In this document: one piece after another, positions 1,525-29,307 of the stretch
How the letters are laid out: each line of letters starts with the position of its first letter
Numbering within the stretch: the stretch's first letter is position 1
Assembly: GCA_965219535.1 (NCBI GenBank)
Contig: CBDCNV010000001.1
Coordinates: 900,001 to 932,000, forward strand
From: Opitutales bacterium
GTDB taxonomy: Bacteria > Verrucomicrobiota > Verrucomicrobiia > Opitutales > PNEW01
Reading direction: 5' to 3'
DNA: 32,000 nucleotides
Translations under genes and position numbers: made by a program
Notes under the pieces: generated by a model
The model's input: only the letters and a program-made list of their open reading frames with translations
Told to the model about the DNA's origin: nothing
Database searches by the model: none

Positions 1525-2883
1525 CTAAGACATAAAATCATCAGCTTTGGCACGTAACCTTTTCAGATCGTCGGCGTGAGCCGCGTCATTTATCAGATTT
1601 TGATTTTCACCCGGATCAGCGTCTAAATCAAAGAGCTGCTCAGGCCATTCTTTACCCTCGAAACGGAAGTACTTTAAGTGGTCCTGTTTGACCATCACCG
1701 ACGGCCCGTTAAATGGATGGTATAATTCGCTATAAACTTCATTCGGCCAATCGTCAGACTTTCCTTCCATGAGCGAAACGAGGGAGCGTCCATCCAACCC
1801 GTTTGGTATCGGCACCTGGGCTATCTCGCAGAGGGTCGGGAATAAATCGACGAGCGAGACATTTTCCTGAATAATTGCGCTGCCTTGATTAAACTTTTGT
1901 GGCCTCGAGATGAAGAACGGTACACGTACCGAAGCATCAAAGTACTGCTGTTTTTCCCATAGTCCTTTTTCGCCAAGCATCTCACCGTGGTCGGACAGAA
2001 AAACTACTACGAAATCATCGAGCACATTCAGCGCTTCGAGCTTGGAGATAACACGCCCGAACTGCATATCCGTCCACTCGATCATTCCGTAATAGGCAGC
2101 AGTCGCTCTATGCGCTTCGCGATAGGTGACATCTTCACCGACTTTTATTTTGAAATAATCGTGGCAGTCGAAATTCTCAGGGAGGTCTTCGACGCGTGGC
2201 TTCACACGTTGCATGTAATAGTTAAACAGCTCTTCGGGACATTGGAATGGATAATGCGGACAATTCAAGCTGACCGCGAGTAGTAGCGGACCCTCGCCTG
2301 GCCTGTCGTAAGTCGAGTCGACAAAGAATTCGTCGAGGTACATTAAGGCACCGTCAACGGTGTACTTATCCTGTTTCATGTAAGTACTCATGCCGACTCG
2401 GGCGTTGGTCATTTCTTTGGCTTGCGGCCATTTGCCCGTACCTTCTTCGTGAAAGGTTGTGGCTTGGTGAAGGGGATCATCCGCCGGTTCGAAGCCGGTA
2501 CGCCCTCGGATGTCGCGGCCGATTCGCTCGTACCAGCCGTGCATCTGGTCGGGACCGTCGGCAAAGTGCATCTTTCCCGCAGCGACGGGGTGGTACCCGT
2601 ATCGGGAGAGATGACCGGGAATGGTTAACACCTCGCTTGGCAGTGGGATTCCGTAACCTCTGCATCCGCAGTTTTCCAGATAGTTGCCAGCCAGGAAACA
2701 CTGCCTAGCCGGCACGCATATCGGCGATGGCGTGTAGGCATTACGAAAATAGTTTCCCTGGTTGATGAACCTGTCGAGCGTCGGGGTTCGAATCTGCGAA
2801 TTACCTTCTATCGGCAAGACATCAGGTCGATGTTCATCATCGATAAGCAATAGAATATGAGGTTTTTTATTAGGACTTTCCAT
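1525..2883 (-). CDS. Type I (formylglycine-dependent) sulfatase, leaderless; tandem paralog 2
   Basis: 452-aa ORF collinear with the 13..1392 product, with high identity by eye and the same motifs (HILLLIDDEHRPD, SPICVPARQCFLAGNY, LSDHGEMLGEKG). About 45 nt of the 5' leader (..ataagaaagg..) and the 3' flank (gacataaaatYatcagctttggcacgtaacc) are also duplicated. Confidence 0.85.
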   Translation of the reverse strand: MESPNKKPHILLLIDDEHRPDVLPIEGNSQIRTPTLDRFINQGNYFRNAYTPSPICVPARQCFLAGNYLENCGCRGYGIPLPSEVLTIPGHLSRYGYHPVAAGKMHFADGPDQMHGWYERIGRDIRGRTGFEPADDPLHQATTFHEEGTGKWPQAKEMTNARVGMSTYMKQDKYTVDGALMYLDEFFVDSTYDRPGEGPLLLAVSLNCPHYPFQCPEELFNYYMQRVKPRVEDLPENFDCHDYFKIKVGEDVTYREAHRATAAYYGMIEWTDMQFGRVISKLEALNVLDDFVVVFLSDHGEMLGEKGLWEKQQYFDASVRVPFFISRPQKFNQGSAIIQENVSLVDLFPTLCEIAQVPIPNGLDGRSLVSLMEGKSDDWPNEVYSELYHPFNGPSVMVKQDHLKYFRFEGKEWPEQLFDLDADPGENQNLINDAAHADDLKRLRAKADDFMS

Positions 2884-3032
2884 AATTTACTTTTTTACTC
2901 AGATTATAAGAAAGGAGGTAAGGCGAACTTTTTGCAAAATGATTTTTAAGTAAGCGTACAACCCACCGTCTTGATTGTGAAGGAGGGTGGCTCCTGCTTG
3001 CCTTACTCGACCAGCTACGGTTTGCGCCATTT

Positions 3033-3215
3033 CGATTGTCGATTGAGTTTCTTCTCTATTGTCATTGCGAGAAGCAACGCGACGAAGCAATCCAGGGGGA
3101 TGTCAATACGTGATCGGCATTCCCCTGGAATGGAAGATGTCGCTGCGCTCGGTAGCTGCAATCGGCTACGCCTCCTTCGCAATGACAATAAGAAATCAAT
3201 CCGCATTTCGCAATC
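3033..3215. repeat. Long imperfect inverted repeat (arms about 3033-3074 and 3174-3215) enclosing a diverged copy of the GC-rich core (3095-3155)
   Basis: There is a perfect 13-bp complement: attgtcattgcga (3058-3070) against tcgcaatgacaat (3177-3189). It extends outward: cgattgagtttctt (3040-3053) against aagaaatcaatccg (3190-3203) with indels. The loop contains gggggatgtcaat...gctgcgctcggtag, which aligns to the core at 5621-5679, and an inner 7-bp stem CCAGGGG (3092-3098) / CCCCTGG (3122-3128). Confidence 0.55.
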
Positions 3216-3257
3216 CGTACCGAGAGCGTAGCTCGACATCCTCTATCCGCAATCGAT

Positions 3258-5519
3258 TCACTCTATCGTCAGTTCTTCTATCGTCACTGTAATCTCATCT
3301 CCATCCTCGTTGGCGAAGGTGGCGACAACACTTTGTGTCGGTTGAGGCGTTTCGTCAGACTTGAAGTTGTTTTGCGTGATCAGGGTTTCAAACCCGGTCG
3401 TTGTCGATCCACTCTCCGCGACTACGATCGAAGCGCCGTTCGTCTGCAAGAGGTCTCCACCGGTGATCCGCAACCCGGGGTTGCCGGCCGGTACCGTGAA
3501 GGATCCCTCACCAAAGAGAAGGTGCGGTACCGCATCGCCATCGGCATCGATGTCGCCCACGGTCAAACGTACCGCGATCGGCAAGCCGCGCGCATCGAAG
3601 CCGATCTTGCCGGTGCTTCCACTGAAGACGGTGTTCGATAACTGCACCCCTCCCAGTCCCGTGGAGTTGACTACTTCCACGAGGGCCACGTCTGCCTGGG
3701 CGTCATAGACCTGTCCTTCGGGGAACAGTGCCTGGTTAAAGGCGTTGATCCTTCCCCCCGTGAAAATGCTGAAGAAGGTATTGGCGTCCGCTCCATCGAT
3801 GACCACGCTGGGCTTGCCCGTCACATATTCGACGGCCTGGTTGTAGCGTGGGGGTATGGCCGGGGGTAGGAAGGTGGCCGGGTCCAGGGTTACGGTAAAG
3901 GTACCGTTACCTGAGAACTCTACCTGCACAATGTCCTCGTTTTCGTCCATGAAGGAAACACGGGTGATCTGTCCCGGTTTGGACTGGAGTTGGACGGACT
4001 CTCCGGTGAGTAATATCTGGTCGAAGACGTTGCCGTTGGCATGCTGAATGTCTTCCCCGGCGATATCGCCCGAGCCGTCAAGGACGAGGGGAATGGAAGG
4101 CGCTGCTACGGTGATGACTGCGGTATCGCTGTCAGCGGTACCGCCGGCATTAGTTATTTGTGCCCAGTAGTTCGTGCTCGCGGTGAGCGCACCGGTAGTT
4201 AGTGTGCTTCCGGTCGCGCCGGCGACGGGAGCTGCGGTGTCACCGCTGTTACCGGTAAACCACTGGTAAGTGAGATCGTCACCGCTGGCGGTGACGGTCA
4301 AGCTGGCTGAAGCGCCAGACTGCACTTCCTGGCTCGCGGGCTGGGTGGTGATCGAGGGTGCATCCGCGGGTGGGGGACCCTCGGAGCCGCTCCCAGGGGC
4401 GCCGATCGGGGTAAACCCGAAATCGTCGATACCGTTACGGGTAAATAAACCAGCGTTCACATCTTCATCATCAATATAAACAATCCTCCCAATACCTCCG
4501 GGTGCTCCCAATTCATCTGCATTAAAGGTAAGAAAAGTGGGTTTAAATTCCGGATGAACAACCGTCTCCATGTCTGTTACAGTCACGAGCAGGTTATCAT
4601 TAGTATCGTAGACTTCGATAGAGCAATCGATTTCTGTCTGCCCCGAGGCACTTTCACAATTTGCATAAAAATCCACCTCATAAGCCGGAGTTTCAAAGGT
4701 GATGGTGAATTCCCCATCTCCAGCCTCTACAATAAAAGATTGGTTAAAAGAATGTTGTGATGGGCCGCCGCTACTAGATCTAATACCCCCTCCACTACCA
4801 CCAGTACTGGTAAAAGTAGAGGTATAAGGAGAAGTCCCAATAGAAAAAGGTTCCAGTCTGCCATCACCTGGTCCAAATCCATCACTCGCCTCAAACCGGG
4901 TAAAGACCGTATTATTGTTGGGCTTATCCGTGGGCGTGTAGCCAAGATCATCAATGGAAAATTTACCTGTAACATTGAGAATCTTTACTTCTTTTATACC
5001 TTCAATGAATTCCAGATCCGTGGCATCAAGAAAATTGCCGCTGTCAGCAATAAAGCTTTGCAAGGCAGGGTTGGCTCCCGGGCTGATGTTAGCCGGTAGT
5101 CCTACAACTTCACCATTATCTCCTATCACTCTTAAAACTTCAGCAACTCCGCCGCTGCCTAATCCGAACCCGCTATTTCTATCTCCTCTGACTTCGATTT
5201 TGCCGCCCCCTGTTGATTCGGCCGCGTAAAATTCTAAGGTATTAATCCCGCGGGGGCTGACAATTAATCCTTCCTGACCGGGCGCAAGGGTTATCGCTTT
5301 CGATCCCGAGTGTAAAAGCGCTGGATCTTCTAATGTCTCTACGGTGAAGCCAATGAACTGGATATCATTCGGCGGACTACCGAGTCTAAAATCTCCCGAT
5401 CCTTCGGCATCCTCAAAATCGAGAAATACTTCCTGATCTTGAGGAAGAGCTGACAGGTGCACCGGTAAATAGAGCAAAAGAATCAGAATCGGGGATATTT
5501 TTACAGGTTTTCTATTCAT
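3258..5519 (-). CDS. Secreted multidomain protein of unknown function (signal peptide, two diverged N-terminal repeat modules, Ig-like domain, conserved C-terminal module of about 285 aa); paralog 1
   Basis: 753-aa ORF with a signal-peptide-like N-terminus MNRKPVKISPILILLLYLPVHLSALPQ. It has internal repeats (..LEFYAAESTGGGKIEVRGD.. and ..VDFYANCES..IEVYDT..) and an Ig-like segment ITTQPASQEVQSG..LTYQWFTGNSGDT..YWAQITNAGG..AVITV. A paralog lies at 17653..19884. I did not recognise a catalytic motif. Confidence 0.8.
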   Translation of the reverse strand: MNRKPVKISPILILLLYLPVHLSALPQDQEVFLDFEDAEGSGDFRLGSPPNDIQFIGFTVETLEDPALLHSGSKAITLAPGQEGLIVSPRGINTLEFYAAESTGGGKIEVRGDRNSGFGLGSGGVAEVLRVIGDNGEVVGLPANISPGANPALQSFIADSGNFLDATDLEFIEGIKEVKILNVTGKFSIDDLGYTPTDKPNNNTVFTRFEASDGFGPGDGRLEPFSIGTSPYTSTFTSTGGSGGGIRSSSGGPSQHSFNQSFIVEAGDGEFTITFETPAYEVDFYANCESASGQTEIDCSIEVYDTNDNLLVTVTDMETVVHPEFKPTFLTFNADELGAPGGIGRIVYIDDEDVNAGLFTRNGIDDFGFTPIGAPGSGSEGPPPADAPSITTQPASQEVQSGASASLTVTASGDDLTYQWFTGNSGDTAAPVAGATGSTLTTGALTASTNYWAQITNAGGTADSDTAVITVAAPSIPLVLDGSGDIAGEDIQHANGNVFDQILLTGESVQLQSKPGQITRVSFMDENEDIVQVEFSGNGTFTVTLDPATFLPPAIPPRYNQAVEYVTGKPSVVIDGADANTFFSIFTGGRINAFNQALFPEGQVYDAQADVALVEVVNSTGLGGVQLSNTVFSGSTGKIGFDARGLPIAVRLTVGDIDADGDAVPHLLFGEGSFTVPAGNPGLRITGGDLLQTNGASIVVAESGSTTTGFETLITQNNFKSDETPQPTQSVVATFANEDGDEITVTIEELTIE

Positions 5520-5600
5520 GGTGTTACAATGGTTATAGCATTGTCATTAAATTGCCTAAGTAAAAGTGCTGGTGTTTAATAGTCGAGGGTTATGCAAATT

Positions 5601-5706
5601 GTCGATTTCCGATTTCCGATGAGGGATGTCCATCCGTCGCACGAGGCTATGGACGACAGGCGGGCTGCGCCCTCGGTAGTCGATTCGTGATTTCGGATTG
5701 ATTGAC
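5601..5706 (+). repeat. Composite intergenic repeat: 59-nt GC-rich core (5621-5679) flanked by CGATTTC-type 7-nt periodic sequence
   Basis: The core gagggatgtccatccgtcgcacgaggctatggacgacaggcgggctgcgccctcggtag recurs at 12235-12294 (+) and 21088-21146 (reverse complement). The left flank is tcgatttccgatttccgat and the right flank is tcgattcgtgatttcggattgattg. Confidence 0.7.
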
Positions 5707-7390: not shown

Positions 7391-7547
7391 GTGGCATAAG
7401 GGGTCAAACGTAGAATTTAAATGTTATCGACCGATGCCAAATTTCTAATCTTATGAAAATTCATCCATGCTCCATTGTTCATGATCCAAGGAATACTTGT
7501 CAGCTTATCAATCTTTAAATTCTACGTTTGACCCTTTTACCTAATCC
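7391..7547. mobile_element. MITE-like 157-bp element with 21-bp perfect terminal inverted repeats, copy 1
   Basis: TIR-L ggggtcaaacgtagaatttaaa (7400-7421) and TIR-R tttaaattctacgtttgaccc (7514-7534). The whole 157 bp, including the outer gtggcataa and ttttacctaatcc, recurs at 13181-13337 (3 substitutions by eye) and 16070-16229. It has no ORF of meaningful size and lies between the convergent GH51 and SBP-permease genes. Confidence 0.7.
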
Positions 7548-12198: not shown

Positions 12199-12327
12199 GA
12201 GGAGGAGGTGGGGTTGGAGGAGGAGAAACGATTTGGGGGATGTCCATCCGTCGCACGAGGCTATGGACGACAGGCGGGCTATGCCCTTGGTACGCATTCA
12301 CGCGTAATCGTTCTCCTTCATCCTCTC
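12199..12327 (+). repeat. Composite intergenic repeat: GC-rich core (12235-12294) flanked by inverted GAGGAG-type periodic arms
   Basis: The core gggggatgtccatccgtcgcacgaggctatggacgacaggcgggctatgcccttggtacg differs from the 5621-5679 copy at a few positions. The left arm is gaggaggaggtggggttggaggaggagaaacgat. The right arm atcgttctccttcatcctctc is its imperfect reverse complement (atcgtt + ctcct matched). Confidence 0.65.
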
Positions 12328-13180: not shown

Positions 13181-13337
13181 GTGGCATAAGGGGTCAAACG
13201 TAGAATTTAAATATTATCGACCGATGCTAAATTTCTAATCTTATGAAAATTCATCCATGCTCCATTGTTCATGATCCAAGGAATACTTGTCAGCTTATCA
13301 ATCTTTAAAATCTACGTTTGACCCTTTTACCTAATCC
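13181..13337. mobile_element. MITE-like 157-bp TIR element, copy 2
   Basis: Near-identical to 7391-7547, with TIR-L at 13190-13211 and TIR-R at 13304-13324. It lies between the convergent HD and GNAT genes. Its right end overlaps the last 7 nt of the GNAT ORF, including the stop codon. Confidence 0.7.
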
Positions 13338-16069: not shown

Positions 16070-16229
16070 GTGGTGACATTAGGGGTCAAAGGTAGAATTT
16101 AAATATTATCGACCGATGCCAAATTTCTAATTTTATGAAAATCCATCCATGCTCCATTGTTCATGATCCAAGGAATACTTGTCAGCTTATCAATGTTTAA
16201 ATTCTACGTTTGACCCTTTTACCTATTCC
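16070..16229. mobile_element. MITE-like TIR element, copy 3 (more diverged, 3-bp insertion near the left end)
   Basis: TIR-L ggggtcaaaggtagaatttaaa (16082-16103) and TIR-R tttaaattctacgtttgaccc (16196-16216). It has about 8-9 differences from copy 1 by eye and lies downstream of desaturase 16360..17466. Confidence 0.65.
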
Positions 16230-16231
16230 CA

Positions 16232-16284: not shown

Positions 16285-16320
16285 AGACGAAGACGAAGAC
16301 GTGGACGATGACGAAGATAA
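16285..16320. repeat. Six tandem units of a 6-nt GACGAA-type repeat
   Basis: The array reads gacgaa gacgaa gacgtg gacgat gacgaa gataag. The same unit builds the arms of the element at 28963-29272. Confidence 0.6.
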
Positions 16321-16359
16321 GATTTTAACCGCCAGGCAAAATCGGCAATTGGCTTTCCT

Positions 16360-17466
16360 TCAAGCGATCGTGAGCGCGGCTTCGCGCTCGAGGACATCGT
16401 CATCCGCGCAGTCGGCACCTTCGACGGGCGATGGCAGTTCGGGGACGTAGGTGTAATCGGGGTCCTCGAGCCGTTTGCGGTGGATCTGCAATATTTCCTT
16501 CCATGTCGCCCAGAGACCGTGGTGTGCCGGTGGTAGGTCGTCCTCGATAGCGGCGCGTAGTTTCGGCAAATTGAAAAAGGGCACCGCGGGGAACATGTGA
16601 TGCTCAATATGGTACTGCATGTTCCAGTAGAGGAAGCCGGGTAACCACGAGCAGGTGTAAGTCCGGCAGCAGAGGCGATGATCCGGTGTGTCTGGAGTAA
16701 GTCCGGAATGCTGCGGATTACCGCAGAGAAAACCCAGCCATTGGCAATAGTGTTTGCCCTGGACAAGGATGATTAGAAACCAGTGTCCGGTGGCGATAAA
16801 GACCGCCGCCAGGGTCGCGTGGCCGAGAAGTGTGACCCTCGCCCAGTTGCGGTGCTCGCGGCGCATCTTGGCGTCACTTTCGGGCATTATGAACTCATAC
16901 CATTCGTTGTCCATTTTACCGGTCGCGCGCTTGGCATAAAATTTCAAAACATCCCAGGTTTGCAACGGTTCCCAGGCAAACAAACGGGTCCAGAATCGCC
17001 AGTCTTTAAACGTGAATTTTGTGGGCAGTACTACCTCGCCATCATAGTCGTGGTGGACTGTAACCTGGTGGTGCCTGATGTGGCTGGGTCGAAACCAGAC
17101 GATATCCCACCAGCCAATGAATCCAAATACCCTAAGGAAAAACTCGTTCAGTGCTTTCGTCTTAAATGGCGTCCGATGCATGAGTTCATGGCACGCTGTG
17201 CCCCCGAGGAAATTGCAGAAGGAGCCGTGAACAAACAACGCGGCGAACAGAAGGGGGACCGACCAGATCCAGCTATCTCCGTTTATCTGCAGGAAGATGA
17301 AGTAAGCCAGTGCCCCGGTCAGGAAACACAATCCCAGGTGCCCCAGGGCTTGGCGCAGCCCCTGCAGATCGCTCCGCTTAGTCAGCTCCTTCATCACAGC
17401 GGGATCAACTTTGCAGCGGTACCAACTGATCGTCTTGTCCTTGAGGAATTTTTGAGAGTCACTCAT
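16360..17466 (-). CDS. Membrane di-iron fatty-acid desaturase/hydroxylase family protein, paralog 1
   Basis: 368-aa ORF with three histidine boxes in canonical order (HELMH, HIRHH, HIEHH followed by MFPAVP) and hydrophobic segments between them. A paralog lies at 21685..22797. Confidence 0.8.
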   Translation of the reverse strand: MSDSQKFLKDKTISWYRCKVDPAVMKELTKRSDLQGLRQALGHLGLCFLTGALAYFIFLQINGDSWIWSVPLLFAALFVHGSFCNFLGGTACHELMHRTPFKTKALNEFFLRVFGFIGWWDIVWFRPSHIRHHQVTVHHDYDGEVVLPTKFTFKDWRFWTRLFAWEPLQTWDVLKFYAKRATGKMDNEWYEFIMPESDAKMRREHRNWARVTLLGHATLAAVFIATGHWFLIILVQGKHYCQWLGFLCGNPQHSGLTPDTPDHRLCCRTYTCSWLPGFLYWNMQYHIEHHMFPAVPFFNLPKLRAAIEDDLPPAHHGLWATWKEILQIHRKRLEDPDYTYVPELPSPVEGADCADDDVLEREAALTIA

Positions 17467-17652
17467 GTCGATTTTCCGCAGATGTCAAAATTAATGAAGC
17501 CATATTACAATAAAATAATTACAAATACTTGGTTAGTGAAGAATAGCATAGATTGTTTATTTAATATAAAGAAGATTAGACATAAAATGCAGTAACTCCT
17601 AGCACATAATAGGAATTAAGTCTCCTCCATTTTGACTTATTGACGTTTTACT

Positions 17653-19884
17653 CTATTCGATCGTCAATTCTTCAGTCGCAACCTCGATCGCATCCCCGTT
17701 CTCGTTAGCAAAAGTGGCGTCGATGCTCAGTGTTGGCTGAGGTGTGTTGTCCGATTTAAAATTGTTCTGTGTGATCAAGGTCTCGAATCCCGTCGTTGTC
17801 GATCCACTCTCCGCGACGACAACCGCGGCACCGTTTGTTTGCAATAAGTCTCCACCTGTGATCCGCAACCCGGGGTTACCGGCGGGAACAGTGAAGGAGC
17901 CTGAGCCAAACAATATGTGCGGTACCGCATCGCCACTAGCATCGATATCGCCTATGGTTAAGCGTACCGCGATCGGTATCCCCCGCGCGTCGACACCGGT
18001 TTTGCCCGTACTTGCGCTGAACGTGGCGTTCGACAGCTGCATCCCACCCATACCCGTGGAATTTATAACCTCCACGAGGGTCACGTCCGCTTGTGCGTCG
18101 TAGACTTGACCCTCGGGGAAGAGGGCTTGGTTCACCGCGTTGATTGTTCCCACGGTGAAGATACTGAAAAAGGTATTCGCGTCGGCGCCGTCAATTACCA
18201 CGTTGGGTCTGCCGGTGACGTATTCGACGGCCTGGTTATAGCGAGGGGGGATAGCCGGGGGCAGGAAGGTGGTTGGATCGAGGGTGACGGTAAAAGTACC
18301 AACACCCGAAAATTCAACCTGTACGATATCCTCGGTTTCATCCATAAAGGAGACGCGAGTAATTTGCCCGGGCCGGGCCTGTAGCTGGATGGATTCACCG
18401 GTGAGTAAAATTTGGTCAAAGACGTTACCGTTGGGGTGCTGAATATTCTCCCCGGCGATATCACCTGAGCCATCGAGAACGAGAGGCACGGTAGGGACTG
18501 CGACCGTGATGACGGCGGTGTCGCTGTCACCACCACCACCGGCGTTAGTTATTTGCACCCAGTAGTTAGTGCTTGTGGAGAGAGCACCGGTAGTCAAAGT
18601 GCTGTCGGTGGCGCCAGAGACAGGGTTCACGGTGTCACCGCTGTTACCGGTATACCACTGGTAAGTAAGATCATCACCGCTGGCCGCTACGGATAATACG
18701 ACAGCGGTCCCGGACTGCACTTCCTGACTCGCGGGGTGGGTGGTAATCGTTGGTTCAGATACCGGGGGCGGTCCACCTCCACCGTTCGCACCGGGTGCTC
18801 CGATCGGGGTGAATCCAAAATCATCCACGCCGCTTTCACCAACACTACCGGCGGCGGCAAAGGGTAAATTCAAGTAGGTGATTTTACCAATCCCACCCGG
18901 TGCTCCTAATGCTTCGGCATTAAAATCAAAAAAAGTAAAAGGTGAACTTATGCCAATATTGATATTCAGAGGAACGTCGGTTGTCGAAGTGAGCAGGTTA
19001 TCTTCGGTGTCAAAAACCTTGATTTCACTATCTCCCTCAACGAACTGTGCAGAATAAAACTGCACCTTGGCCACTGGGGTTTCAAAAGTTATCATTCCCA
19101 TGGTATCATTCTGAATCGCCCATATTCCTCGACTGATATCAGGAAAAGTATGATTTAATGGAGAATTCACTATCGTTCCTACAGACGGTTGCACAATACC
19201 ACCGGTAAAAGTGGCGCTAAAGGGTGATTCACCTAGCGTGAAATTAACTCGGTTAATAAAAATTTTAAATATTGGATGATTATCTAAATCCTCAAAATCT
19301 TCGAAGACAGTATTATTGGGAGGTCCAACGACATAGGTAAATCCAAGATTGTCGAGAGAAAATTGTCCGGTGACGCTGATAACTTTAATTTCTTTTATGC
19401 CATTGGTGAAATTAAGATCATTGAGATCGAGTACATCTTCACTGAAAGCGATAAAACTTTGTAAAGGTGGATTAGCGCTGGTACTTATATCAGAAGGTAG
19501 TCCATTGACTATACCTTGTTCAGAAAGGATCAAAAAATTTTTATCTCTTAATTCGATTCTGCCTCCCCCCTGTGATTCAGCAGCATAAAACTGGAGCAGG
19601 TTGACGCCTCGTTCAAATAAGATTTTTCCTTCTTGCGCGCCAGGGACGAGGACTAAAGCCCTGGTGCCCGAGTGGGCGAGATTTGGATTGTCTACAGTTT
19701 CTAAGGTGAAGTTTATTACCCTGATACTATCGGGGGGTTCGCCAAGAACAAAATCAGTTCCCTCTGCGGACACCCCTTCAAAATCGAAATAAGTATCAAG
19801 GTCTTGAGGAAGGGCATAAAGGTGAGCCGGTAAATAGAGCATTAAAATCAGAATCGGAATTATTTTTATTAGTTTTCTTTTCAT
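17653..19884 (-). CDS. Secreted multidomain protein of unknown function, paralog 2 of 3258..5519
   Basis: 743-aa ORF with signal peptide MKRKLIKIIPILILMLYLPAHLYALPQ. It has the same Ig-like segment (LTYQWYTGNSGDT) and a highly similar C-terminal half ending ..EELTIE. The N-terminal half is much more diverged. Confidence 0.8.
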   Translation of the reverse strand: MKRKLIKIIPILILMLYLPAHLYALPQDLDTYFDFEGVSAEGTDFVLGEPPDSIRVINFTLETVDNPNLAHSGTRALVLVPGAQEGKILFERGVNLLQFYAAESQGGGRIELRDKNFLILSEQGIVNGLPSDISTSANPPLQSFIAFSEDVLDLNDLNFTNGIKEIKVISVTGQFSLDNLGFTYVVGPPNNTVFEDFEDLDNHPIFKIFINRVNFTLGESPFSATFTGGIVQPSVGTIVNSPLNHTFPDISRGIWAIQNDTMGMITFETPVAKVQFYSAQFVEGDSEIKVFDTEDNLLTSTTDVPLNINIGISSPFTFFDFNAEALGAPGGIGKITYLNLPFAAAGSVGESGVDDFGFTPIGAPGANGGGGPPPVSEPTITTHPASQEVQSGTAVVLSVAASGDDLTYQWYTGNSGDTVNPVSGATDSTLTTGALSTSTNYWVQITNAGGGGDSDTAVITVAVPTVPLVLDGSGDIAGENIQHPNGNVFDQILLTGESIQLQARPGQITRVSFMDETEDIVQVEFSGVGTFTVTLDPTTFLPPAIPPRYNQAVEYVTGRPNVVIDGADANTFFSIFTVGTINAVNQALFPEGQVYDAQADVTLVEVINSTGMGGMQLSNATFSASTGKTGVDARGIPIAVRLTIGDIDASGDAVPHILFGSGSFTVPAGNPGLRITGGDLLQTNGAAVVVAESGSTTTGFETLITQNNFKSDNTPQPTLSIDATFANENGDAIEVATEELTIE

Positions 19885-20059
19885 ACTGCTATAACATTTA
19901 GAGCGATGCCAATTCGGGCGAATTATTTGACGGGTTAGTTAGTATTCAACCTAATCATTATTTAAATATTGGCGAGGGCTTTAGGTGGAATAATTAAGGC
20001 CGTTTAAATGAAATAGAGGATTAAGCTCCATTGCCAGTTTTCAAAAAAGAATTGTTCCG

Positions 20060-20175: not shown

Positions 20176-20964
20176 TCATGATTTCTCTTCTGAAGGATGT
20201 TTCTGTGTATCGTATAATGTAGAAGTACCTGGAAGCTTTGATTTTCGACCATGTTTTTCTAAAAGTTTATCTGATGCTTCAATAACCAAAGAGAGAATAT
20301 TAATTTCTTCTACCACTTCAAAAAGCATGCGTTTTCCCGCGGCATGAACTTTGTCTACCGCCTCGGCAAATGCTTTCTTTGCCTCAGGGTGATTAGGTTC
20401 CCCGGGTAGACCCATGGACTGTGCTATATCTTCAGGCCCACCCGTGAAAAAATCAATGCCGTCAACCGTAAGGATTTCATCCAAATTTTCAAAGGCGGTG
20501 ATGCTTTCCAGTTGTGGTACTAACAGCGTATTTTCATTAGCAAAATTGTAGACAAACTTACGATCGGTTTCTACTGCATTAAATATCATTCGAATACCGG
20601 TTGCGCTGCGGGCTCCTTTGGGCCCGTAGTAGGTGTATTTAACCATAGCTTCCGCTTCCTCTTTTGTTTTCAGGTTGGGAACGACAATCAATTTTACACC
20701 GCGGTCTAAGTAGCTGAGAATTGTGCTCTCATTCTGATCGGGAATACGCATGCCGGCGGTAATTCCAAATCCCTCTGCGACACGACATAGGTGCTCTGCC
20801 GTTGCGGGGTGAATGGCGGAATGTTGACCCTCAATGTAAATATAATCAAGCCCCATAATGGCGGCCAATTCTATAAATTCTTCTTCTCCAGCTCTGACGT
20901 TCAAGCCCAATGCCTTTTCTCCATTCTTAACTCGTTCAATTATTTTATTGGTCTTCATGGACAT
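20176..20964 (-). CDS. HpcH/HpaI-family (class II, divalent-metal) aldolase
   Basis: 262-aa ORF. The N-terminal pattern IERVKNGEKALGLNV..EFIELAAIMGLDYIYIEGQHS matches the family layout. It has the Arg in GMRIP, a Glu in VPQLES, and GGPEDIAQSMG (Asp). Confidence 0.7.
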   Translation of the reverse strand: MSMKTNKIIERVKNGEKALGLNVRAGEEEFIELAAIMGLDYIYIEGQHSAIHPATAEHLCRVAEGFGITAGMRIPDQNESTILSYLDRGVKLIVVPNLKTKEEAEAMVKYTYYGPKGARSATGIRMIFNAVETDRKFVYNFANENTLLVPQLESITAFENLDEILTVDGIDFFTGGPEDIAQSMGLPGEPNHPEAKKAFAEAVDKVHAAGKRMLFEVVEEINILSLVIEASDKLLEKHGRKSKLPGTSTLYDTQKHPSEEKS

Positions 20965-21087
20965 GCTTTCTTTTTATCGGTAGTCTGTGAGAAACAGTGT
21001 TGTGAAAGATTGAAATTTTCAAAAGTAAAGCGCCACCTCCCAATATAGACAAGACCTAATGCTTTTAATCGCTAACTGAATCAATCG

Positions 21088-21146
21088 CTACCGAGGGCGC
21101 AACCCACCTGCCGTCCATATCCTCGTGCGACGGATGGACATCCCTC
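21088..21146 (-). repeat. GC-rich core repeat, reverse-complement copy
   Basis: The reverse complement reads gagggatgtccatccgtcgcacgaggatatggacggcaggtgggttgcgccctcggtag, which has 4 substitutions relative to 5621-5679. Confidence 0.7.
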
Positions 21147-21157
21147 AATAGACATTT

Positions 21158-21193
21158 CAATTTCCGATTTCCGATTGCCGATTTTCGATTTGG
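21158..21193. repeat. Left inverted arm: about 5 units of a 7-nt (C/G)CGATTT repeat
   Basis: The sequence is caatttc cgatttc cgattgc cgattttc gatttgg. The reverse complement of 21641-21677 aligns to it. Confidence 0.65.
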
Positions 21194-21269
21194 AGGATGA
21201 TGAGCTTCGCGCTCGGTACAATAGACAGGGTGTTAATGGTTTTCGGAATTATCCGATTAATAAATTTAT

Positions 21270-21623
21270 ATGGACTCTAATATATTGAAGCAACGGACTA
21301 AAAACTTGGCAATGCGTATACTAAAGATGGTCGAAACTTTACCTAATACATCAACCGCAAGAATTATAAGCCATCAAATCATACTGTCTGGGACCTCAGT
21401 AGCCGCAAATAATCGGGCGGCGTGTCGTGCAAGAAGTAAAGCAGAATTTATTGCAAAACTAGGAATTGTGGAAGAAGAGGCTGATGAAACACTCTTTTGG
21501 CTCGAACTGAGCGAAGAAACAGGACTGTTACCATCCAATCGACTTAAAGATATCAAACAAGAAGCTAACGAAATTACTGCAATTATTGTGTCTTCACGCA
21601 AATCTGCTAAATTTCCTCAATAA
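21270..21623 (+). CDS. Four-helix-bundle protein (23S rRNA intervening-sequence protein family, PF05635/TIGR02436-like; same fold family as DGR Avd)
   Basis: 117-aa ORF with the family-typical pattern: LAMRILKMVETLP..ARIISHQIILSGTSVAANNRAACRARSKAEFIAKLGIVEEEADETLFWLEL. It is on the opposite strand to both neighbouring genes. Confidence 0.85.
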   Translation: MDSNILKQRTKNLAMRILKMVETLPNTSTARIISHQIILSGTSVAANNRAACRARSKAEFIAKLGIVEEEADETLFWLELSEETGLLPSNRLKDIKQEANEITAIIVSSRKSAKFPQ

Positions 21624-21640
21624 TTAATTTTATATTTAGT

Positions 21641-21677
21641 ATCAATCGGCATTCGCAAATCGCAAATCGGCAATTGG
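21641..21677. repeat. Right inverted arm: about 5 units of the 7-nt repeat in inverted orientation
   Basis: The sequence is atcaatcggc attcgca aatcgca aatcggc aattgg. Its reverse complement is ccaattgccgatttgcgatttgcgaatgccgattgat. The last two units are also present downstream of desaturase paralog 1 (16335-16352). Confidence 0.65.
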
Positions 21678-21684
21678 CTTTCCC

Positions 21685-22797
21685 TCAACCGATCATAAGC
21701 GCGGCCTCGCGCTCGAGGACATCGTCATCCGCGCAGTCGGCATTTTCACCTTCGACGGGCGATGGCAGTTCGGGGATGAAGGTGTAATCGGGGTCCTCGA
21801 GCCGTTTGCGGTGGATCTGCACTATTTCCTTCCATGTTGCCCATAGACCGTGGTGTGCCGGTGGCAGGTCGTGCTCGATAGCGGCGCGTAGTTTCGGTAA
21901 ATTGAAAAAGGGCACCGCCGGGAACATGTGATGCTCAATGTGGTACTGCATGTTCCAGTAGAGGAAGGCCGGTAGCCACGAGCAGGTATAAGTCCGGCAG
22001 CAGAGGCGGTGATCCGGTGTGTTCGGATTAAGTCCGGAATGTTGTGGTTGACCGCAGAGAAAACCCAGCCAATGGCAATAGTGTCTTCCATTGACAAGAA
22101 TGATTAGAAACCAGTATCCGGTAGCGATAAAGACCGCCGCCAGTGCCGCGTGGCCGAGAAGTGTGAACCTCGCCCAGTTGCGGTGCTCGCGGCGCAGCTT
22201 GGCGTCACTTTCGGGCATGATGAACTCATACCATTCGTTGTCCATTTTTCCAAACGCGCGCTTGGTATAGGATTTCAAAATATCCCAGGTTTGCAATGGG
22301 TTCCAGGCTAACAAATCAGTCCAGAATCGCCAGTCTTTGAACGTGAATTTGGACGGCAGCACCACCTCGCCGTCATAGTCGTCGTGGACTGTAACCTGGT
22401 GGTGCCTGATGTGGCTGGGTCGAAACCAGACGAAATCCCACCAGCCGAGGAATGAAAAAACGCGAAGAAAAAACTCATTCAACGCTTTCGTCTTGAACGG
22501 TGTCCGATGCATGAGTTCATGGCATGGCGCGCCGCCGAGGAAACGGCAGAAGGTGCCATGAACAAACAAGGCGGCGAGCAGAAGGGGGACAGACCAGATC
22601 CAGCTATCTGCATTTATTCGAAGGAAGACGAAGTAAGCCAGTGACCCAGTCAGGAAACACAATCCCAGGGAACCCAGGCAATGGGTTAGTCCCTGTAAAT
22701 CGCTCCGCTTGGTCAGCTCTTTCATCACAGCTGGATCAACCTTGCAGCGATACCAACTGATCGTCTTGTCTTTAACGAATTTTCGAGCGTCGCTCAT
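21685..22797 (-). CDS. Membrane di-iron fatty-acid desaturase/hydroxylase family protein, paralog 2
   Basis: 370-aa ORF collinear with 16360..17466, with the same His boxes (HELMH, HIRHH, HIEHH). About 60 nt of the 5' flank and about 25 nt of the 3' flank are also conserved between the two loci. Confidence 0.8.
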   Translation of the reverse strand: MSDARKFVKDKTISWYRCKVDPAVMKELTKRSDLQGLTHCLGSLGLCFLTGSLAYFVFLRINADSWIWSVPLLLAALFVHGTFCRFLGGAPCHELMHRTPFKTKALNEFFLRVFSFLGWWDFVWFRPSHIRHHQVTVHDDYDGEVVLPSKFTFKDWRFWTDLLAWNPLQTWDILKSYTKRAFGKMDNEWYEFIMPESDAKLRREHRNWARFTLLGHAALAAVFIATGYWFLIILVNGRHYCHWLGFLCGQPQHSGLNPNTPDHRLCCRTYTCSWLPAFLYWNMQYHIEHHMFPAVPFFNLPKLRAAIEHDLPPAHHGLWATWKEIVQIHRKRLEDPDYTFIPELPSPVEGENADCADDDVLEREAALMIG

Positions 22798-23016
22798 ATC
22801 GAATTTCCGCGGATGTCACATTTAATGGAGCAATATTACAATTAAATAATTCAATAACGAGGAAAGTCAAGAATGGCTGAGATCCTGAAGTATCTGAAGA
22901 TGTTCGCCAGGTATTGCTCCCACCTTTATCCTGTAGCCTTCCTCTTCGAAATGCTCGATTTGGTTCTGAGTTATATTTAATTGAGTGATCTAGACGTGAA
23001 TAAAACACTTAATTAA

Positions 23017-28927: not shown

Positions 28928-29307
28928 CAGTTTCCAATTAATTATGATAAATTTACAATAAAGCTTCGTCCACGCATGCCACGTCGTAGACTACTGGGGA
29001 AGACGGGTCTGCCTCTTCGTCTGCGTCCTTTCAATCACTAAATTAAATATCATGGTGGAACGCGCTGCCTGTCCGACATAGCCTTGGCAACGGCTGATCC
29101 CTAGCGCGTTTGATTATGTCGTGATTGAAAAATTGTGCTAGTGTTCAGCCTTAGTTATATATTATCAGGCTACATAGATCAGCAACCTGCACCAGCTTGG
29201 TTTGCAAGATTTATGTACAATTGTTCGAAAAGATCCACTAGAGACGCAGACGCGGACGAAGACGAAGATCCCTTGATGACTATTATGGCTCGCAGTTTCC
29301 AATTAAT
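28928..29307. mobile_element. ORF-less stem-loop element (about 350 bp) bracketed by a 15-bp direct repeat
   Basis: The direct repeat cagtttccaattaat occurs at 28928-28942 and 29293-29307; the second copy contains the dctM stop codon. Nested complementary arms are present: gcttcgtccacgc (28963-28975) pairs with gcggacgaag (29252-29261), and cgtctgcgtc (29018-29027) pairs with gacgcagacg (29243-29252). The inner hairpin is aacgcgct (29059-29066) / agcgcgtt (29103-29110), and its loop resembles the GC-rich core. Confidence 0.55.

Follow-up and report, generated by a model that had tools for sequence, protein, structure and literature searches.

The window analysed here, a stretch of 32,000 nucleotides from the genome of an Opitutales bacterium, carries genes for sulfatases, transporters, dioxygenases and desaturases, and no defence gene was found in it. 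Our subject is a small gene on its plus strand at 21270-21623, which encodes a protein of 117 amino acids and is enclosed by two inverted arrays of a 7-nt repeat. Since the flanking genes for an HpcH aldolase (20176-20964) and a fatty-acid desaturase (21685-22797) both lie on the minus strand, the gene is antisense to either neighbour. An initial annotation of the DNA had described the locus as an intergenic cassette that resembles the intervening sequences (IVS) of 23S rRNA and lies outside any rRNA. This placement was correct, as no rRNA or tRNA was found in the 32-kb window by Rfam and tRNA scans, and the cassette is therefore not inserted into an rRNA helix as an IVS is.

The encoded protein matched PF05635 with an E-value of 1.7e-17 and 64 bits (cutoff 33.8) and TIGR02436 with 89.4 bits (cutoff 24), and thus belongs to the IVS-protein family to which it had been assigned by eye. 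A full-length match was obtained to PDB 2RLD (E 7.7e-18), an entry that holds five chains. From this match and from the literature on homologues, the protein is predicted to adopt a four-helix-bundle fold and to assemble into a homopentameric toroid. PF05635 was its only domain; no PADLOC or PHROG match and no recognisable catalytic domain was detected. The conserved core RSGTSVGANYRAACRARS...VEEEADE..FWLEL was present, with the replacements R39L and Y48N.

The left (5') arm at 21158-21192, detected as an inverted and a tandem repeat, consists of about five units of GATT(T/G)(C/T)C. The right (3') arm at 21644-21676 contains about four to five units of the complement (nnnAATC) and reaches to 9 nt from the stop codon of the desaturase gene, which runs convergently. 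The best arm pair (21158-21190 and 21644-21676) is 33 nt on each side, 79% complementary and spaced by 453 nt, close to the five-unit arms, the imperfect alignment over some 30 nt and the loop of about 450 nt that had been read from the sequence. In a shifted register, 22 nt were 91% complementary. According to Tandem Repeats Finder (TRF), ATTTCCG is repeated 4.6 times at 21160-21191 and TCGCAAA 2.4 times at 21653-21669, and CGATTNNCGATT occurred seven times in the window, where 0.14 occurrences are expected. The 77-nt leader from the left arm to the ATG contains a lineage-specific motif, GGAGGATGATGAGCTTCGCGCTCGGTAC, at 21192-21219. As a whole, the cassette comprises about 527 bp of the plus strand (21150-21676), defined by blastn and alignments as the unit common to copies at unrelated loci. 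The arm-arm RNA duplex had a calculated energy of -32.0 kcal/mol for the sense strand (z -6.0) and -32.6 kcal/mol for the antisense strand (z -5.4), compared with -12 +/- 3.5 for shuffled arms. The arms were paired with each other in the minimum-free-energy folds of both strands.

The inverted arms proved to be a general feature of the homologues. The loci analysed were the 80 best matches to the window ORF (open reading frame) from a scan of the GTDB representative genomes, with 50-74% identity, together with six plasmid loci; they lie mostly on contigs of metagenome-assembled genomes (MAGs) and do not represent a random sample of PF05635. The nearest homologue, with 74% identity, came from an Opitutales bacterium. 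The others were found in Chloroflexota, Acidobacteriota, Bacteroidota, Planctomycetota, Cyanobacteria, Nitrospirota, Deltaproteobacteria, Ignavibacteria, Verrucomicrobiota and a lineage of the candidate phyla radiation (CPR), about ten phyla in all. No rRNA was detected in about 100 homologue loci by blastn against the E. coli rrn operon. No Rfam family covered the arms or hairpins of the window and 20 homologue loci, where only a sub-threshold chance match to a snoRNA and one tRNA were obtained. A viral collection yielded no relative when searched with the single protein and three loci when searched with a profile; one of the three was examined.

When at least three GA(A/T)T units at 7-nt spacing were required, a chain detector with a false-positive rate of about 5%, GA(T/A)Tnnn arrays were found upstream of the gene in 71/82 loci (87%) and their complement downstream in 69/82 (84%). 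In the wrong orientation only 4/82 and 5/82 loci scored, and 15 of 286 windows taken 1-1.5 kb away. A detector for periodicity only placed 7-nt arrays no more than 200 nt upstream of the gene in 49/81 loci and downstream of it in 45/81, roughly 17-fold more densely than elsewhere in the loci; the fraction of loci with arrays thus depends on the threshold, with 60% for strict periodicity and 85% for the chain detector. Of the consensus units obtained from periodicity, 50/54 upstream and 49/51 downstream included GATT or GAAT, as opposed to 0 and 3 in the wrong orientation. Positions 5 to 7 of the heptamer were variable (K, n, then mostly G or C). In these variable triplets the two arms of a pair agreed at 2.05 of the 3 positions, compared with 1.2 after permutation (maximum 1.59 in 5000 permutations). 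Mismatches between arms were mainly G/T variants of the unit, and in several loci the complementarity ran on into non-periodic sequence.

The number of upstream units was 3 in 15 loci, 4 in 18, 5 in 30, 6 in 5 and more than 6 in 3, which gives a peak at five (30/71) that is rarely exceeded. Downstream, 3, 4, 5 and 6 units were counted in 20, 22, 21 and 3 loci, respectively. The median distance was 21 nt from the upstream arm to the ATG and 6 nt from the stop codon to the downstream arm. The homologue loci also contained 18 ORF-less hairpins with a GAWT array, a loop of up to 120 nt and an AWTC array, and none with the reverse order. In distant homologues of 35-45% identity, the 7-nt period and the inverted layout were kept with other units (GAAGTCG, GATGAAn, GAAGAAT, GGAAAGn), and the unit changed together with the protein clade. 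A role of the arrays as stop codons in all frames was ruled out, since the commonest unit, GATTGCG, contains none.

Some single loci had a more complex structure. At L055 (3411-4466), three tandem partial matches to the centre of the protein (63-68% identity, about 65 amino acids each) were observed with short heptamer hairpins between them, which suggests a tandemly amplified fragment of the cassette. In a Gallionella MAG (L072, 480-2550), GATTGCG-type hairpins lie between, and apparently within, pieces of a CheA-type kinase (Hpt, ATPase and CheW-like, assigned by eye); the arrays there seem to be translated as a linker peptide, for example ADFGLRIAE. An additional tandem repeat of about 35 nt was seen upstream at L110, on the Pseudanabaena plasmid pPg_04.

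Closely related copies of the cassette were found at different sites in sister genomes. The identical protein was present on ENA contigs with the same neighbours as in the window. Proteins of 94-97% identity occurred in three contexts, namely between aldolase and desaturase genes (L092), between PhyH and Ig_7 genes (L004 and L093) and between FAD-oxidoreductase and Ig_7 genes (L094). As judged by blastn and alignments, the window shares with L004 and L094 only the segment from AGAyATTTCAATT (21150) to CAATT (21676), with 93-95% identity, and the flanks are unrelated. The blastn bounds of the unit shared with L004, L093 and L094 were 21150/21160 on the left and 21665/21676 on the right. L004 and L094 have a further 95 nt or so of left flank and the Ig_7 gene in common, which probably reflects a segmental duplication. 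A second copy of the cassette, 72% identical, was found on the L092 contig, with arms of the GATTGCG type and again with TTTCAATT and AATTG as termini. The left terminus TTTCAATT (21155-21162 in the window) is kept in the 72%-identical paralogue L114, and the pair TTTCAATT ... CAATTG is conserved between paralogues at this distance.

The cassette was absent from L102, where the aldolase is 97% identical and the gene order is desaturase-GH32-aldolase, with the GH32 segment in place of window positions 21062-21676. Host sequence is common to the window and L102 up to 'TGAGGGAAAGCC' and resumes from 'ATTAGGTCTTG'; GGCTTTCCCTCA (21677-21688) is also host sequence that is present in the cassette-free L102. 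This shows that 21062-21676 is an insertion/replacement polymorphism and defines the right boundary of the cassette to the base. Copies at unrelated sites and a presence/absence polymorphism, both typical of terminal inverted repeat (TIR) elements and of miniature inverted-repeat transposable elements (MITEs), were found, and the polymorphism among relatives that the initial annotation had proposed to look for exists. The comparison includes no clean pair of filled and empty sites, because L102 differs by a gene-sized replacement and L004 by a rearrangement. The number of heptamer units differed between the near-identical L004 and L093, and L004 also deviated from the window in this respect. 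When copies at different loci were compared, the protein had a dS of about 0.2 and an omega of 0.04-0.10, which is purifying selection and argues that the protein is functional.

A candidate for a target-site duplication (TSD), the 8-bp repeat TCCCTCAA that flanks the window cassette, was discarded because it is partly host sequence and shared with the cassette-free L102. A 25-bp direct repeat was found only at L012, the closest GTDB relative, where perfect copies of it, ATTGAACTGGCGGAGAGGGAGGGAT, bracket the cassette (about 2865-3420); L116 is listed alongside it. This repeat is the 3' end of a tRNA gene next to the cassette (L012 3420-3506, identified by Rfam) and looks att-like, unlike any other locus.

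The orientation of the cassette with respect to its host genes was strongly biased. A co-directional neighbour was found upstream in 68 of 80 loci and downstream in 61 of 78; in 52 loci both neighbours were co-directional and in only 4 both were antisense. The antisense position noted at the outset is thus real for the window but exceptional in the family, and the typical cassette lies inside an operon. The arms often touch the stop codon of the preceding gene and the ribosome-binding site of the next, for example at L063 and at L014, where the cassette separates a histidine kinase from a response regulator. Genes of metabolism, transport or signalling flank the cassette in the window and at most of the 82 loci. 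In cultured bacteria, plasmids (L108, L109, L110 and L113) carry co-directional cassettes in defence operons, with the neighbour pairs DISARM drmD and an MmeI-type enzyme, DUF1156 and Swt1-HEPN, csx2 and cas1, and a helicase and an N6-methylase. At L105 from IMG/VR the cassette is apparently located between BREX-like pglX and pglZ genes, which were assigned by protein motifs only. Genes for 23S rRNA intervening-sequence proteins (IVPs) have been reported within cas loci (PMC3936711; PMC10910872). Cassettes in defence operons probably explain such published 'CRISPR-associated' 23S_rRNA_IVP calls.

Taken together, these data establish the anatomy of the cassette, its generality, its polarity, the co-variation of the arms, the co-orientation with host genes, the insertion polymorphism and the purifying selection on the protein. 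We favour, with a probability of roughly 0.55, the reading that 21150-21676 is a selfish cassette of the IVS type outside rRNA, whose arms form an RNase III stem in the transcript that crosses it. The IVS-like character proposed by the initial annotation is supported, and the link to the IVS has become stronger through the heptamers of the Coxiella element (PMC4990558). According to this reading, a cassette with inverted arrays, 5'-GA(T/A)T-K-n-n upstream and the complement downstream, and with the ORF in the hairpin loop would normally be transcribed by read-through from the host operon; at the window locus, either strand could supply the transcript. The arms would pair in this transcript as a duplex of about 25-35 bp and would be a substrate of RNase III, a role that is documented for the stem of ORF-bearing IVS in 23S rRNA. 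Processing by RNase III is predicted here from the homologous architecture of the Coxiella IVS. The cleavage would free the cassette RNA from the host transcript, or cut this transcript apart, and in this way would make an insertion between genes or in rRNA tolerable. In the DNA, the unit with both arms would be gained, lost and duplicated between intergenic sites.

Several observations weigh against this reading. The scan for promoters gave no convincing candidate at the window ORF; together with its antisense position this means that expression of the ORF by read-through cannot apply here. The arms pair in the folds of both strands, but the folding energy of the 561-nt region was no better than that of shuffled sequences on either strand (z about 0). 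G:U and A:C mismatches between arms were equally frequent (56 and 54) with no asymmetry on either strand, so that there is no independent signature of pairing in RNA over a DNA inverted repeat. At two plasmid loci, L108 (Planktothrix p1) and L110, the ORF is located between two complete hairpins instead of inside one. No mechanism of mobility is evident, as the 32-kb window contains no transposase, integrase or reverse transcriptase. The longest direct repeats across the cassette boundaries had a mean length of 5.9 nt compared with 5.8 nt in controls (60 loci), which speaks against a general TSD. For Coxiella, the authors of the IVS study came to the conclusion that the S23p protein is probably not expressed there (PMC4990558). 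Finally, the window copy itself may be decaying, as its sequence suggests: its arms are only 79% complementary to each other, whereas the right arm of L094 matches the left arm of the window at 94%; the protein has four private amino acid changes, of which R39L and Y48N hit columns with a conservation of at least 90% among 44 homologues; and omega against the orthologue is about 1.2, a value based on only 5 differences.

The pairing of the arms does not account for all features of the arrays. The invariant phase of the GAWT tetranucleotide, the strict polarity and the limit at about five units are not explained by a plain stem and point to a sequence-specific reader. The encoded protein is a candidate for this reader because it is the only constant partner of the arrays, because proteins of this family form pentameric rings, because the homologous Avd grips RNA with five protomers and because the heptamer unit and the protein clade change together. 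A homopentameric toroid that reads the heptamers would be the most economical reader, a suggestion that we put forward tentatively. A bolder proposal, which we regard as doubtful, is that free-standing PF05635 genes and the ORF-less hairpins make up a self-recognising system across phyla. The pentamer would read up to five GAWT heptamers on the 5' strand of the hairpin, as RNA or single-stranded DNA, and the hairpin would also be the site of RNase III. The elements would then behave as 'operon introns' in intergenic spacers, rRNA and defence operons, and the ORF-less hairpins would be non-autonomous.

The absence of a G:U asymmetry is also what would be expected if the element acts in DNA only, in the manner of a MITE or a REPIN. 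In such an element, the arrays would be TIRs with multiple sites to which the protein, or a host enzyme in trans, binds and so favours copying or recombination, the ORF-less hairpins would be non-autonomous copies and the RNA pairing would be incidental. The arms and the ORF indeed travel together between loci, ORF-less hairpins of the same polarity occur in the same genomes, the termini are conserved at 72% identity of the paralogues, and the unit and the protein clade change together. In addition, a conserved tetranucleotide in fixed phase is reminiscent of the motifs that are repeated subterminally in transposons. We nevertheless regard a DNA-only element as rather unlikely, since a general TSD, a recognisable catalytic domain in the protein and a transposase or integrase in the window were all missing. 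Furthermore, the ratio of 52 to 4 in co-orientation points to a constraint from RNA or transcription for which a DNA-only element would have no need, and the homologous rRNA IVS are processed as RNA (PMC4990558).

The peak of the upstream units at five, together with the homopentameric family and the contact of Avd to RNA by all five protomers, could also be understood if the cassette were an autoregulatory module. The toroid would then bind the (GAUUnnn) array at the 5' end of its own mRNA, in the way that the rings of TRAP or HutP recognise repeated triplets, and would compete with the pairing of the arms to set translation or stability; the gene would be an ordinary and possibly useful one. 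The median of 21 nt from the left arm to the ATG and the strong purifying selection fit such a module. Its need for a complementary array downstream would be unexplained, however, and ORF-less hairpins and solitary arrays, a patchy and insertion-polymorphic presence and cassettes in unrelated operons of all kinds are not expected for it. We consider it improbable.

A function as an accessory of neighbouring CRISPR-Cas, restriction-modification or DISARM systems, with the arms as local terminators or insulators, appears very improbable to us: the IVP genes in cas loci and the plasmid cassettes next to drmD and an MmeI-type enzyme, csx2 and cas1, DUF1156 and Swt1-HEPN or the helicase and N6-methylase are in its favour, but the neighbours at most loci belong to other functions, the same cassette occurs in unrelated contexts of sister genomes and T-run features of terminators are missing from the arms. 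That a small gene merely lies by chance among ordinary intergenic repeats of the STRR (short tandemly repeated repetitive sequence) or REP (repetitive extragenic palindrome) kind, to which it would have no functional link, can hardly be maintained. The window does contain other CGATT-type arrays and repeat families, and heptamer repeats with other sequences abound in some of the genomes, but this view is contradicted by the correctly oriented arrays at 87% and 84% of the loci against about 5% in controls and by the absolute polarity and co-variation of the arms, which moreover move with the ORF.

The initial annotation had also mentioned structures elsewhere in the window that share the architecture of the cassette but lack the ORF, which holds only in part. 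The element at 3032-3256 shares it weakly: it has 16-nt inverted GATT arms of two units, TCGATTGTCGATTGAG and CTCTATCCGCAATCGA, around a structured insert of 193 nt with nested inner inverted repeats. An Ig_7 gene has its stop codon directly next to this element, at the site where L004 has the cassette. The structure at 5603-5705 on the plus strand does not share the architecture; a CGATTTC array (2.6 units) is followed by a 59-nt core and GATT-rich sequence, and its arrays are direct and not inverted, with no ORF. The window has three copies of the GC-rich 59-nt core, GAGGGATGTCC...CCCTCGGTAG, at 5620-5685, 12233-12292 and 21083-21148 (reverse orientation). Every copy adjoins CGATT-containing sequence, and similar cores are present in the Opitutales locus L012. 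The third copy is part of a variable segment to the left of the cassette (21062-21149), which consists of an AATC-containing stretch (21066-21087), the core (21088-21146) and three more bases. A short form of the core with 27 nt (GAGGATG..CTCGGTAC) is found in the leader of the cassette (21192-21219) and at 3216-3243, where the leader motif is reverse-complemented and 96% identical to the L004 copy. The folding z-scores of the 59-nt core and of the leader were not significant.

A 13-nt remnant of a right arm, AAAATCGGCAATT, was found on the plus strand at 16338-16350 beside the paralogous desaturase gene (16360-17466), after which the same host sequence, GGCTTTCC, follows. Solitary arrays of two to three units directly after the stop codon of desaturase paralogues were seen at two positions free of the cassette, this one and L102 5477-5515 (AATTTTCGATTTGCGAAT), and may represent footprints or landing sites. 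The hexamer AGACGA forms arrays at 16285-16317 (5.5 copies), adjoining the arm remnant, and at 29242-29268 (4.5 copies). An intergenic repeat of 157 nt is present three times (7391-7547, 13181-13337 and 16073-16230) with 94-98% identity and about 65% self-complementarity; it looks MITE-like and unrelated to the heptamer arms. Three pairs of paralogues lie within the 32 kb: the two desaturases (16339-17553 and 21664-22883) are 88% identical, two sulfatases (8-1445 and 1520-2937) 83% and two Ig_7 surface proteins (3262-5546 and 17657-19911) 67%. The close relatives L102 and L004 differ from the window by gene-sized rearrangements, which shows that the region is plastic.

To our knowledge, annotations as TIGR02436 'four helix bundle proteins' are very numerous in many phyla, with no known function. 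The literature covered by our search treats them as a curiosity of rRNA or as possible accessories of CRISPR and defence systems. In open-access papers and bioRxiv no description was found of heptamer-array arms as a feature of the whole family, or of IVS-type cassettes in mRNA contexts, except for the note on the Coxiella heptamers. With the present data, an anonymous protein family becomes a defined genetic element, a gene with a conserved, polar and heptamer-phased hairpin that is inserted co-directionally in varied operons. The presence of such genes in cas or restriction-modification operons should accordingly be taken with caution and not as proof of a functional association. The favoured reading and the proposed recognition by the protein make predictions that can be tested: cleavage by RNase III in the arms, binding of about five repeats by the pentamer and dependence of the ORF-less hairpins on ORF-bearing elements. 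The findings may also bear on the abundance of tandem heptamers in some bacterial genomes. If the self-recognising system were true, one of the commonest uncharacterised families of small proteins would have a function, and its 'association' with CRISPR-Cas and restriction-modification would be a parasitism of operons.

The cassette can be compared with several known systems. The STRRs of cyanobacteria are tandem 7-nt intergenic repeats of unknown function. They resemble the arms as intergenic tandem heptamers but differ in the sequence of their units, and we know of no description of them as inverted pairs around a gene. TRAP and HutP are homo-oligomeric rings that bind evenly spaced short repeats in an mRNA leader, with the HutP sites at every 7 nt. 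The likeness of a ring protein and regular leader repeats is an analogy only, because the folds are unrelated, the array of the cassette has a complementary partner downstream and binding is hypothetical here.

REP/RAYT (REPIN) systems share with the cassette a small gene between short inverted repeats and many ORF-less palindromic copies in the intergenic regions of a genome. The PF05635 protein, however, lacks any known catalytic motif and is no transposase of the Y1 (IS200/IS605-like) type, and the cassette has tandem heptamer arrays in place of single REP hairpins. With MITEs and TIR transposons, the cassette has in common the inverted ends with multiple motifs, several copies per genome and the insertion polymorphism; it differs by the lack of a TSD and a transposase and by the strong bias of its orientation with host transcription.

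Avd, the accessory protein of diversity-generating retroelements (DGRs), contacts an RNA stem-loop with all five protomers and holds flipped-out bases in the crevices between them (bioRxiv 10.1101/2023.10.23.563531). It is a homologous pentameric barrel of four-helix bundles, positively charged, that binds an RNA stem-loop, whereas the 32-kb window contains neither a reverse transcriptase nor a template or variable repeat: no reverse transcriptase domain was detected in the window ORFs of at least 177 amino acids, and the neighbours of the gene, aldolase and desaturase, do not make up a DGR. We know of no heptamer arms described for Avd.

The closest likeness is to the 23S rRNA IVS of Coxiella, which are also found in Leptospira and Brucella. 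The IVS of Coxiella burnetii is 428 nt long and contains an S23p ORF and a stem of 28-bp terminal inverted repeats; its 5' region has two to three tandem heptamers, GACAGAT, the first of which is the cleavage site of RNase III; their number differs from strain to strain (PMC4990558). The homologue from X. campestris is a homopentameric toroid (PMC4990558). In common with these IVS, the cassette has a protein of the S23p/PF05635 family, a similar length (428-444 nt compared with about 527 nt) and terminal inverted repeats that give a stem of about 28-35 bp, with -32 kcal/mol for the duplex of the window. As in Coxiella, its 5' arm contains tandem heptamers, 4.6 units in the window, whose number varies between strains. 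The GC content is below that of the flanks, and the patchy distribution suggests horizontal transfer (PMC4990558). The differences are that the window cassette is placed between protein-coding genes and not in rRNA, that its unit is GA(T/A)Tnnn instead of GACAGAT, that excision by RNase III is predicted here, and that its protein is under purifying selection, whereas that of Coxiella is thought to be expendable. In conclusion, the cassette has the same build as the rRNA IVS excised by RNase III, including the heptamers, but is located outside rRNA.

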